A DNA stretch of 64,000 nucleotides from the NCBI GenBank assembly GCA_964016885.1, contig OZ024745.1, positions 72,540,001 through 72,604,000 of the forward strand. Direction: 5' to 3'. Shown piece by piece: positions 20,809 through 50,830 of this stretch. A program made the translations under genes and the position numbers. Numbering within the stretch: the stretch's first letter is position 1; the number at the start of each line of letters is the position of its first letter. Under the pieces are notes generated by a model. It saw only the letters and a list, made by a program, of their open reading frames with translations. It did not search any database and was not told where the DNA came from. Source of the DNA: Eledone cirrhosa. Lineage: Eukaryota.

Positions 20809-20860
<52 letters not shown>

Positions 20861-20862
<2 letters not shown>

Positions 20863-21348
20863 TAGAATTGGCCCTCTGAAATAGCAATATATATATGGAT
20901 GTATATATAATGTATTTTGCAATACACTTTATTCTTAATTAAAAGCATTTTGAAGACCGTATGCTATTGTTTTAGAGTAGTGACAAATTCACTTACTTTA
21001 ATCTCAGCAAACAGGGGAGATAAGCCGACAAGGCCTTGTTTCGCTTTTGTTGAAGCTTATCAAGGCTAACTACCCCTCCTGTCTACTGAGATTACTGATG
21101 TTATATTCTTATAGAATTCTAGTAAATAATCAGGAACTGATTATACAGAGCGATTGTTGGTCAGGCAGAAATTAAAAATTAGAATTGGAGCTCTGAAATA
21201 GCAATATATATATGGATGTATATATAATGTATTTTGCAATACACTTTATGCTTAATTAAAAGCATTTTGAAGACCGTATGCTATTGTTTTAGAGTAGTGA
21301 CAAACTCACTTACTTTAATCTCAGCAAACAGGGGAGATAAGCCGACAA
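20861..21348 (-). mobile_element. Retrozyme-like element, ~1.5 copies of a 317-bp unit; HHR at 21023-21067 with U3-A8 core
   Basis: ATTAGAATTGG at 20861 and 21178; minus strand AGCC TTGATAA GCTT CAACAA AAGC GAAA CAAGGCCTTG TC GGCT. Confidence 0.8.
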
Positions 21349-23520: not shown

Positions 23521-23762
23521 TGGCATGTCAGTTAGATTCAAACTTATACTGTATATACTTTATATACATTATAAACTCTTTTTAAAAAGAATTGTCCTCA
23601 TTTTTTCAATAATGTCCTTTTGACGAATCAAAGAAAGGAAAATTAAAAGAAAAACAGACCCTAAAATATGTTTTCCGTGCTATTTCCAACTTCACCTTTT
23701 CTCTATAACCACTGCTTGGCTTGGTATAGAACCTTACTTCCCTTTTCAAATATATATATATA

Positions 23763-25855
23763 TTGGAATAAATGCTCTGAAATAGCGATATATATGTGAA
23801 TATAGACATAGAATATTCGAAAATATTCTGTATGTTTATAATAAACATTTTGAAGACCTAATCGCTATAGAATAGAATACGTCACGTATTACAATTAGAT
23901 TCTCGATAAAAGCAAGGGAAGTAATCTACACGTTTCATTCTTGTTAGAAATCTTCAGGACTACATATCCAGTGCTTTTATCGAGAATGACACAGCTAGAG
24001 ACTTATAGAATACTTAGCTGTGTACAGGAACTGGTTTGAAAGAGCGGTTGCCGGTCCGGCAGAAATTAGAAATTGGAATAAATGCTCTGAAATAGCGATA
24101 TATATGTGAATATAGACATAGAATATTCGAAAATATTCTGTATGTTTATAATAAACATTTTGAAGACCTAATCGCTATAGAATAGAATACGTCACGTATT
24201 ACAATTAGATTCTCGATAAAAGCCTATAGCGATTAGGTCTTCAAAATGTTTATTATAAACATACAGAATATTTTCGAATATTCTATGTCTATATTCACAT
24301 ATATATCGCTATTTCAGAGCATTTATTCCAATTTCTAATTTCTGCCGGACCGGCAACCGCTCTTTCAAACCAGTTCCTGTACACAGCTAAGTATTCTATA
24401 AGTCTCTAGCTGTGTCATTCTCGATAAAAGCACTGGATATGTAGTCCTGAAGATTTCTAACAAGAATGAAACGTGTAGATTACTTCCCTTGCTTTTATCG
24501 AGAATCTAATTGTAATACGTGACGTATTCTATTCTATAGCGATTAGGTCTTCAAAATGTTTATTATAAACATACAGAATATTTTCGAATATTCTATGTCT
24601 ATATTCACATATATATCGCTATTTCAGAGCATTTATTCCAATTTCTAATTTCTGCCGGACCGGCAACCGCTCTTTCAAACCAGTTCCTGTACACAGCTAA
24701 GTATTCTATAAGTCTCTAGCTGTGTCATTCTCGATAAAAGCACTGGATATGTAGTCCTGAAGATTTCTAACAAGAATGAAACGTGTAGATTACTTCCCTT
24801 GCTTTTATCGAGAATCTAATTGTAATACGTGACGTATTCTATTCTATAGCGATTAGGTCTTCAAAATGTTTATTATAAACATACAGAATATTTTCGAATA
24901 TTCTATGTCTATATTCACATATATATCGCTATTTCAGAGCATTTATTCCAATTTCTAATTTCTGCCGGACCGGCAACCGCTCTTTCAAACCAGTTCCTGT
25001 ACACAGCTAAGTATTCTATAAGTCTCTAGCTGTGTCATTCTCGATAAAAGCACTGGATATGTAGTCCTGAAGATTTCTAACAAGAATGAAACGTGTAGAT
25101 TACTTCCCTTGCTTTTATCGAGAATCTAATTGTAATACGTGACGTATTCTATTCTATAGCGATTAGGTCTTCAAAATGTTTATTATAAACATACAGAATA
25201 TTTTCGAATATTCTATGTCTATATTCACATATATATCGCTATTTCAGAGCATTTATTCCAATTTCTAATTTCTGCCGGACCGGCAACCGCTCTTTCAAAC
25301 CAGTTCCTGTACACAGCTAAGTATTCTATAAGTCTCTAGCTGTGTCATTCTCGATAAAAGCACTGGATATGTAGTCCTGAAGATTTCTAACAAGAATGAA
25401 ACGTGTAGATTACTTCCCTTGCTTTTATCGAGAATCTAATTGTAATACGTGACGTATTCTATTCTATAGCGATTAGGTCTTCAAAATGTTTATTATAAAC
25501 ATACAGAATATTTTCGAATATTCTATGTCTATATTCACATATATATCGCTATTTCAGAGCATTTATTCCAATTTCTAATTTCTGCCGGACCGGCAACCGC
25601 TCTTTCAAACCAGTTCCTGTACACAGCTAAGTATTCTATAAGTCTCTAGCTGTGTCATTCTCGATAAAAGCACTGGATATGTAGTCCTGAAGATTTCTAA
25701 CAAGAATGAAACGTGTAGATTACTTCCCTTGCTTTTATCGAGAATCTAATTGTAATACGTGACGTATTCTATTCTATAGCGATTAGGTCTTCAAAATGTT
25801 TATTATAAACATACAGAATATTTTCGAATATTCTATGTCTATATTCACATATATA
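23763..25855. mobile_element. Retrozyme-like 310-bp tandem array: ~1.5 inverted units (23763-24223) joined to ~5.25 direct units (24224-25855), one HHR per unit
   Basis: TCAAAATGTT recurs at 24241, 24551, 24861, 25171, 25481, 25791; HHR GTAGTC CTGAAGA TTTC TAACAA GAAT GAAA CGTG TA GATTAC at 24441, 24751, 25061, 25371, 25681 (+) and 23921-23963 (-). Confidence 0.9.
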
Positions 25856-26118
25856 TATATATATATATATTGAAGGATGAGTAATTAAGCTTTATATTAA
25901 GCTTTATTTAAGCTTAATTTATTCTGAGTTAAGACTCTATTGGTTTTTCCCTGGATTTTACAAAATCTGTGGATAAAATCTCTGTCTTGATTATTTTTTA
26001 ATTGAGTTTGAATTATTTTCCCATATCTTACGTTAATTATTTTCCACTTTGACGTTATAGTCACTTATATATTTTGAAATACTGTTGGCTTCTTGCTCAC
26101 AATAATTTCTATATTTTC

Positions 26119-26164
<46 letters not shown>

Positions 26165-26167
<3 letters not shown>

Positions 26168-26362
26168 AAAATGTTCAAGACCCCGACGGCAGAGCTGAAG
26201 TCGTTTCGACGGCTATTTCTGGTCCAGAAATAGCCGTCGAAACGGCTTGAGCTCTGCCGTCGGGGTCTTGAACATTTTCCTATTACCCATTCTACTACCC
26301 TAAGTATTGAGTATTCTGGTGCGTTATGGTCCACCTGGTTCATTACGACACTTCCTTCGTTA
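26165..26362. mobile_element. Family F1 foldback copy (palindrome 26165-26281 plus tail)
   Basis: GGAAAATGTTCAAGACCCCGACGGC...GCCGTCGGGGTCTTGAACATTTTCC; contains the HHR 3' half GAAACGGC..GCCGTC GGGG. Confidence 0.8.
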
Positions 26363-49769: not shown

Positions 49770-49772
<3 letters not shown>

Positions 49773-50344
49773 TGTATATATAGTATATCTGGCGATATAC
49801 TGTATGTTTAATTAAAAACATTTTGAAGACTTTGCGCTATTATTTTAAAGTAGTGAATATGTCACTTACTTCTTTTTTCAACAAGAGAAGGGAGATAAGC
49901 TGACAGATCTGTTTCACACCATTGGTGTTCATCAGAGCTTAGCAATCGCCGACCTTTGTTGAAAATGATAGACGCTGGATTCTTATAGAATTCTAGTAAT
50001 AATCAGGAACTGATTATACAGAGCGATTGCCGGTCCAGCAAAAATTGAAAATTAGGATTGGTGCTCTGAAATAGTGATGTATACATGAATGTATAGTATA
50101 TTTGGCGATATACTGTATGTTTAATTAAAAACATTTTGAGGACCTTGAGCTATTATTTTAAAGTAGTGACTATGTCAGCTTATCTCCCTTCCCTTGTTGA
50201 GAAAAGAAGTAAGTGACATAGTCACTACTTTAATATAATAGCGTAAGGTCTTCAAAATGTTTTTAATTAAACATACAATATATTGCCAGATATACTATAC
50301 ATACATTCATGTATAAATCGCTATTTCAGAGCACCAATGCTAAT
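49770..50344. mobile_element. Retrozyme-like element (317-bp unit, minus strand) with inverted arm from 50177; HHR at 49896-49941
   Basis: GAATGTATA at 49770 and 50087; minus strand TAAGCT CTGATGA ACACC AAT GGTGT GAAA CAGATCTG TC AGCTTA. Confidence 0.88.
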
Positions 50345-50830
50345 ATATATATATATATATATATATATAACTGTTTCTAGTATTGGCACAAGGCCAACAA
50401 TTACCCAGTACATTACTGGTACTTTATTTTATCGACCCCATAAGGATGAAAGGCAAAGTTAACCTCGGCGGGATTTGAACTCAGAATGGCAAGGGCCGTA
50501 ACTCTATGCGTCGAAGCATGGCGTCCGACCCTCTACCGATACTGCCAATATATAACGAAGGAAGTGTGGTAAGGAACCAAATGGAGCATAACGCCTCCAG
50601 ATTTCTTTTTCGCCTGCTTTCTACCTAGCCTAATTTCATACACACTCCTTAGAATTTGGTGTATAGAATTCACTTTCAACGCTTGACCGGCTCCACCAAC
50701 TCCCTCATTGTTCTACAGGAAAGTTCAGCCACCCCCACCTCCCGCCCACCGCCATGAAAGATTTAATTGTGTTTACAAGAAATGTTGATCAATCCTTTTG
50801 ACAACTACGATCTTCCAATATAAGGAATTA

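Follow-up and report, generated by a model that had tools for sequence, protein, structure and literature searches.

Metazoan non-LTR retrozymes, in the available portions of the published accounts, are dispersed multi-copy families of non-coding, AT-rich tandem units of 150–450 bp that carry one type I hammerhead each, and PLEs have been proposed as their mobilisers. The 310-nt family of Eledone cirrhosa described here resembles them in both unit and dispersal. For the metazoan elements, a circle copied as multimers has been proposed (PMC7229834 and PMC7761336, in the sections available). A link between retrozymes and Penelope elements has been drawn from co-occurrence and terminal-repeat similarity; the accessible part of that preprint leaves the mechanism open and reports no cleavage for 8 of the 9 elements predicted in Xenopus (bioRxiv 10.64898/2026.07.22.740005). 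Expression and cleavage are shown for coral, mussel and axolotl retrozymes in the available text of three sources (PMC7229834; PMC7761336; bioRxiv 10.64898/2026.07.22.740005); in the 310-nt family both are putative.

The second comparison is with Penelope-like elements (PLEs). As in the 310-nt family, insertions of Neptune, Poseidon and Naiad elements carry an inverted, 5′-truncated copy at the 5′ end and a tail of 30–40 nt at one end only of the inverted insertion (available parts of PMC8557442, PMC3846280 and PMC11167929). In vitro, a Penelope protein cuts and extends both strands, and the tail lies between two RT start sites (PMC11167929). Ribozyme cleavage was not needed by the anole element, and uncut RNA was the main substrate in vitro (PMC11167929). 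Head-to-head PLE insertions were explained in 2013, in the portion of the paper available, by self-priming on antisense RNA (PMC3846280), and the later insertion steps were called 'yet to be validated' in 2024 (PMC11167929). As far as the available descriptions go, the 310-nt family is also like endonuclease-positive PLEs in its (TA)n or AT-rich targets, its two internal RT start sites and its hammerhead motif. Unlike the PLEs described there, it has no ORF, and it consists of nothing but a 310-nt repeat that was copied over and over in each arm.

The window locus and its hammerhead units

The array lies on contig C5 of a 3.0-Gb genome, in AT-rich and (TA)n-rich surroundings within the 64,000-nt stretch of DNA that was analysed (the window). 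TRF reported a period of 310 with 5.3 copies and 100% matches at 24224–25856, and a script comparison resolved this interval into 5.27 exactly identical 310-bp units. To the left is an exact inverted copy of 462 bp (1.49 units), joined blunt, 5′ end to 5′ end. A preliminary description of this DNA, made from the sequence, had proposed about 5.25 direct units joined head-to-head at 24223/24224 to about 1.5 inverted units, and the measured figures and exact identity bear this out; its extent and junction also stand, while its start moves from 23763 to 23762, a difference of one ambiguous TA base. The coordinates of the features are listed in Table 1, with unit positions numbered from the predicted ribozyme cut.

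Table 1. Features of the 310-bp array in the window, and candidate partner frames elsewhere in the genome
Feature	Position	Strand	Comment
Left arm, 1.49 units	23762..24223	-	Reaches site B (unit ~163-165) on the outside and unit position 14 on the inside
Right arm, 5.27 identical 310-bp units	24224..25856	+	Reaches unit position 57 on the inside and site A (~130-139) on the outside
Blunt 5′-to-5′ arm junction	24223..24224	.	Presumed meeting point of two cDNAs
Penelope-type 'tail' (unit ~130-165)	23762..23797	-	Terminal on left arm; missing at end of right arm
Left (TA)n target	23750..23761	.	
Right (TA)n target	25857..25870	.	
Type I hammerhead, copy 1	24441..24483	+	Predicted cut after 24477
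Hammerhead, copy 2	24751..24793	+	
Hammerhead, copy 3	25061..25103	+	
Hammerhead, copy 4	25371..25413	+	
Hammerhead, copy 5	25681..25723	+	
Hammerhead, inverted arm	23921..23963	-	
16-bp stem around hammerhead	24417..24505	+	24417-24432 pairs with 24490-24505; closes predicted monomer fold
Long open Neptune-type RT frames	L099:3809-6622, L101:1275-4562, L102:3722-5629		Two with Pfam GIY-YIG match; candidate active partners

The array contains no internal ORF as long as 40 aa, and the three listed ORFs cross or lie beyond its edges, in keeping with the lack of coding capacity suggested earlier; the element thus does not encode the RT and endonuclease that define an autonomous PLE. The outer ends were also correctly placed in (TA)n, which adjoins the array on both sides, and a target duplication is unreadable at this locus because both sides are pure TA. 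The left and right flanks differ from each other, and more than 100 loci have the same architecture with distinct junctions and target duplications, so that an assembly or long-read fold-back artefact is a negligible explanation. A near-perfect palindromic repeat beside (TA)n at 26166–26282 of the window, with similar copies in many loci of the family, is possibly MITE-like.

Five copies of the motif GTAGTC-CTGAAGA-stem II-GAAA-CGTG-TA^GATTAC are found on the plus strand and one on the minus strand, with CTGAAGA at 24447, 24757, 25067, 25377 and 25687 (plus) and at 23951–23957 (minus). Each unit has a helix I of 6 bp, CUGAAGA, a helix II of 4 bp with a 4-nt loop, and GAAA; the first pair of helix II is U-U instead of G-C, and helix III has only 2 bp, within ACGUGU with its palindromic loop. 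The core CUGA(A/U)GA is intact in 572 of the 574 hammerhead copies read. The predicted monomer fold has an energy of -72.5 kcal/mol (z -5.21), with none of 100 shuffles as good, and includes the 16-bp hairpin stem enclosing the hammerhead, which the preliminary description had noted together with the motif in each unit. In the array, Rfam gave no match at the gathering score and only Hammerhead_HH9 below threshold (15.3 bits, E 1.9), and it is therefore motif anatomy and conservation across the family, rather than Rfam, that support the ribozyme call. The microRNA matches that Rfam gave at the junction are merely the inverted arms.

In anatomy the units agree with the canonical type I motif of Metazoa, for which cleavage as a dimer is described in the available text of PMC4209133. 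By motif, each unit is a canonical dimer-type type I hammerhead with predicted cleavage. With a helix III of 2 bp and a palindromic loop, cleavage would need two hammerheads, and so a multimeric RNA, and a monomer circle would consequently be spared.

End sites and arm pairing across the family

A first set of 39 loci (the window and 38 from 39 candidates scored among 186) comprised 32 two-armed loci, 6 single-armed loci and 1 that was unclear beside a gap. Two-armed loci without exception have a minus left arm and a plus right arm, as extension of each target 3′ end into cDNA would predict. The ribozyme-sense 3′ ends point outward into TA-rich DNA, and the 5′ ends meet internally at scattered positions. 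Outer ends occur at two sites only, A and B, 33–37 nt apart, an offset equal to the 30–40 nt of PLE tails that are looked for in PLE cargo; the head-to-head, inverted and 5′-truncated copy and the targeting of microsatellites, likewise looked for, are also present. Site A has an apparent position of 137–139 and, after removal of target-derived TA, a true start at about 129–130; site B has an apparent position of 164–172 and a true start at 163 or 166–167. Copying starts at these fixed internal sites, about 130 and 163–167 nt downstream of the ribozyme cut, and not at the cut.

The two sites are paired in a strict manner. In the first 217.8 Mb of contig C1, all 62 divergent end pairs are A+B (33 BA and 29 AB; p 1.8e-19 under independence). 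Forty of the 65 unpaired ends in the same region were examined, of which 27 belong to two-armed loci with both ends read (27/27 A+B), 11 are single, 1 is two-armed with its far end out of range, and 1 runs into a gap. The two-armed loci of the first set are likewise A+B (32/32, three of them overlapping the 62 pairs), and a further set gave 3 A+B loci, 3 single-armed loci and 1 irregular two-armed locus (L220). Regular two-armed loci read were therefore A+B in 121 of 121 distinct cases, with no AA or BB. Single-armed insertions number 17 in the two main sets (6 and 11), in addition to the 3 of the further set. The exclusion of AA and BB is simply explained if the template is a monomer circle, since this has only one A and one B. 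On a multimer, which would offer many A and B sites, AA or BB pairs should be possible unless the protein enforces adjacency.

Most loci are two-armed with fixed A and B ends and a tail, whereas published retrozymes are described, in the text available, as head-to-tail arrays; the word 'inverted' gave no match in the available text of PMC7229834 and one, in the reference list, in that of PMC7761336. The inverted arm is the norm for the 310-nt family, and a second priming event explains it better than a rearrangement. In L1 twin priming, both target ends prime on one RNA and the cDNAs are joined, giving a 5′ inversion; this is an occasional outcome, and uses the poly(A) end and a variable internal site of a linear RNA. 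In the 310-nt family, by contrast, the two-armed form predominates, with both sites fixed, and the arms copy the same sequence repeatedly.

Target duplications of 12–13 bp that include a non-TA marker base were found in 9 loci (L036, L043, L058, L067, L143, L151, L152, L217 and L221), compared with the more than 4 bp expected of retrozymes when a duplication is present. In 5 loci (L038, L044, L056, L141 and L154) a marker base near the end was not duplicated. The target of L221 is AT-rich DNA outside a microsatellite. Target letters often replace element letters at the ends of insertions, as imperfect annealing of 3′ overhangs to the RNA would produce. One of the B starts, site B1, has only about 2 nt in common with (TA)n, so that the ends look protein-positioned.

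The 54 arm junctions examined include 34 that overlap by 1–16 nt, 8 that are blunt and 12 with inserts, and the mean microhomology of the 42 without inserts is 3.7 nt (0.76 by chance). Such microhomology, together with identical haplotypes in the two arms (see below), would also arise if a single priming event gave a cDNA that folded back and was copied as the second arm, to be captured by the other target end, a scheme akin to that of PMC3846280. Near-symmetric junctions are seen in 6 of the 54 cases, as this scheme would produce, but 3.7 are expected by chance. Neither arm type is longer (medians of 3.3 and 3.1 units, p 0.82), and folding back gives no reason why the second arm should always end at the other site, nor does it fit the protein-positioned ends or the extension of both strands in vitro (PMC11167929). 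It is accordingly an improbable source of the second arm. Penelope-type priming at two sites on one RNA very probably accounts for the paired arms.

Both arms exceed one unit at 42 of 54 loci. Repeating sub-patterns within the arms of L031, L047, L049 and L051 indicate that some arm length is due to later duplication.

Variants and the nature of the template

Haplotypes were compared in 55 two-armed loci, leaving aside 5 short or degraded loci of the first set. In 54 of the 55 the two arms agree in haplotype (shuffle mean 15.2, maximum 26). Among the recurrent variants, 61 are fixed in all units of both arms and none is fixed in one arm only, with 7 partial and 13 scorable in one arm only. Six substitutions and one insertion, each private to one locus among the 55 sampled, are fixed in all 3–18 units of both arms. 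About 9 private fixed variants would be expected in 55 loci if a random monomer were drawn each time, at a minor-allele rate of 5.5e-4. The variant of the window itself, which makes the palindrome wobble-paired, occurs in 21 units genome-wide: all 6 in the window, all 14 on C151, and 1 elsewhere.

These patterns bear on whether arrays could have grown from linear monomers, by repeated 5′-to-3′ template jumping in the manner of telomerase, or mainly by DNA duplication after single insertions. Block duplications are visible in the four loci named above, yet duplication can neither carry variants across the inverted junction nor create the A+B rule. As for jumping, the cut site was traversed 496 times with no indel tied to a single pass, and no more than 2 of the 108 inner ends fall within 3 nt of the cut, so that neither scars nor stops accumulate there, which also speaks for a circle; moreover, haplotypes are unmixed within arms despite the existence of 18. 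Growth by either route is very improbable.

The same twin priming at A and B might instead have used uncut linear or multimeric circular read-through RNA, with the ribozyme incidental. Uncut RNA is the dominant substrate of the anole protein (PMC11167929), and donor arrays are nearly homogeneous, so that both arms would have the same haplotype anyway. One locus, L158, carries a variant restricted to the first turn of each arm, in register, the pattern that a linear or multimeric template would give. A multimer copied by both arms should, however, leave in-register variants common to them, and this was found for only 1 of 50 minor alleles. Uncut RNA also leaves unexplained the rare variants fixed in all 7–18 units of both arms, and an incidental ribozyme does not account for the way in which fixed hammerhead variants avoid the catalytic core. 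Eight fixed variant sites lie in the hammerhead, at N7, in loops or where pairing is kept or improved, and none in the core, which by sequence gives modest evidence of selection. An uncut template is therefore unlikely, and a monomer circle is, overall, probably the RNA that was copied.

Helix I of locus L141 (G000:C1:61292800-61302700) shows an A>G change that is confined to the final two turns in the B arm but occupies all seven turns of the A arm; a template switch, RNA editing during copying or later conversion may be responsible. Like the L158 variant and the block duplications, this allele switch counts against the monomer circle. A-to-I editing was considered as a general source of variants and set aside, the excess of A>G (6, compared with 1 T>C, among 19 fixed sites) being too weak.

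Family size, relatives and a proposed mechanism

The preliminary description had called for a count of genomic copies. An exact 30-mer across the cut site matched the hammerhead 16,358 times genome-wide (control 0), with 8,226 matches forward and 8,132 reverse in the full count; an apparent minus-strand excess was a ranking effect. Exact end patterns numbered 1,243 for A and 1,213 for B (controls 0), and the 100 A ends counted in C1:1-217.8 Mb stand for as many as 127 loci. Extrapolation from C1 and from the end counts gives an estimate of roughly 1,500 insertions in the genome. Copies are mostly 98–100% identical, with an older subfamily at 94% and relatives at 72–80% also present. This dispersed, multi-locus and recently mobile family is a young non-LTR retrozyme of known class, as the earlier description had proposed for the window; the tail, the 12–13-bp target duplications, the A+B rule and the variants fixed across units all support it.

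The window contains two older relatives. One (20856–21284, minus strand) has a period of about 275 bp, 72–75% identity and a degenerate hammerhead, and ends at the B site in (TA)n. The other (about 49770–50360) is two-armed, with 78–80% identity over the shared module, its A end on the left and its B end on the right. Five loci (L104, L106, L110, L111 and L118) represent several further repeat families that carry hammerheads; in one of them helix II is almost the same as in the 310-bp element, and the genome looks rich in such families. A short interspersed repeat in the flanks of L055 and L092 is one that we take to be typical of octopus genomes.

Twenty public runs (18 organism labels, 17 studies) contain at least half of the words of the element, and no RNA runs are among those listed as containing its sequence. 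One run (X1) also contains repeats that flank the element, and two others (X2 and X3) gave a single cyclic contig of 340 nt, with 3–4 differences and no real flank match, which a circle or a tandem array would fit equally. These near-identical sequences may be host traces, or may come from related species or horizontal transfer.

Autonomous frames with RT and GIY-YIG domains (938 and 636 aa, with a CX4CxxC linker) are present in the same genome, and in a Neptune-like RT + GIY-YIG family all three inverted pairs have one arm with and one arm without the family's own tail. Among 73 GIY-YIG loci (about 8 families) of 10,597 candidates, none was an autonomous element with a homologous terminal repeat. 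A match beside a GIY-YIG frame at L070 proved to be a related retrozyme inserted at the end of the element, and not its terminal repeat. In one family of the type of the long open frames in Table 1 there is a hammerhead whose cut lies at similar distances from the ends (118 and 171 nt). At L033:4314-4675, a retrozyme arm is joined, without TA, to the 5′-truncated 3′ end of a young Penelope-like family (copies 98–99% identical, 1,055 candidates). A chimera of two RNAs is possible at L033 but was not counted, since the equivalent side of L039 is unique, older DNA.

Taken as a young non-LTR retrozyme, the family was probably inserted by a PLE RT/endonuclease that cut (TA)n and primed both DNA ends on a single, likely circular, 310-nt RNA. 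Array transcripts would self-cleave as double hammerheads and be ligated into monomer circles. The PLE enzyme would make a staggered cut with 12–13-nt 3′ overhangs, one annealing at site A and the other at site B of the same RNA; both RTs would then go round the circle a varying number of times, displacing strand as they proceed, and the two cDNA 3′ ends would join, often through short microhomology, and be filled in. Penelope-type mobilisation and rolling-circle copying had both been suggested for the window, and family-wide both are supported by the tail, the 12–13-bp target duplications, the A+B rule and variants fixed across all units.

A broader reading, towards which the balance tilts somewhat, is that every two-armed insertion would preserve the trace of a single monomeric RNA circle that two Penelope RTs, primed on either side of one cut, copied at the same time. 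On this view the head-to-head inversion and one-ended tail of PLEs generally would follow of necessity when a dimeric enzyme primes at two sites on one RNA, and the 310-nt circle would be a minimal cis-acting substrate for rolling-circle integration into animal DNA.

The class and the circle model are already published, and the A+B pairing rule was not found in the literature searched. Tails, inverted arms and haplotype sharing were likewise not found for retrozymes in that literature, on which subscription papers and supplements (e.g., S9 of PMC7229834) may bear.

How non-LTR retrozymes are mobilised, and why PLE insertions are head-to-head with a one-ended tail, are both open questions in print, and a young 310-nt family of a thousand loci allows both to be read from DNA. 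It offers testable numbers (start sites 33–37 nt apart, overhangs of 12–13 nt, one A and one B per event, and one template) and defines a tiny RNA substrate for comparing circular and linear templates in vitro. The value of the family is that it records the Penelope insertion mechanism with unusual clarity.
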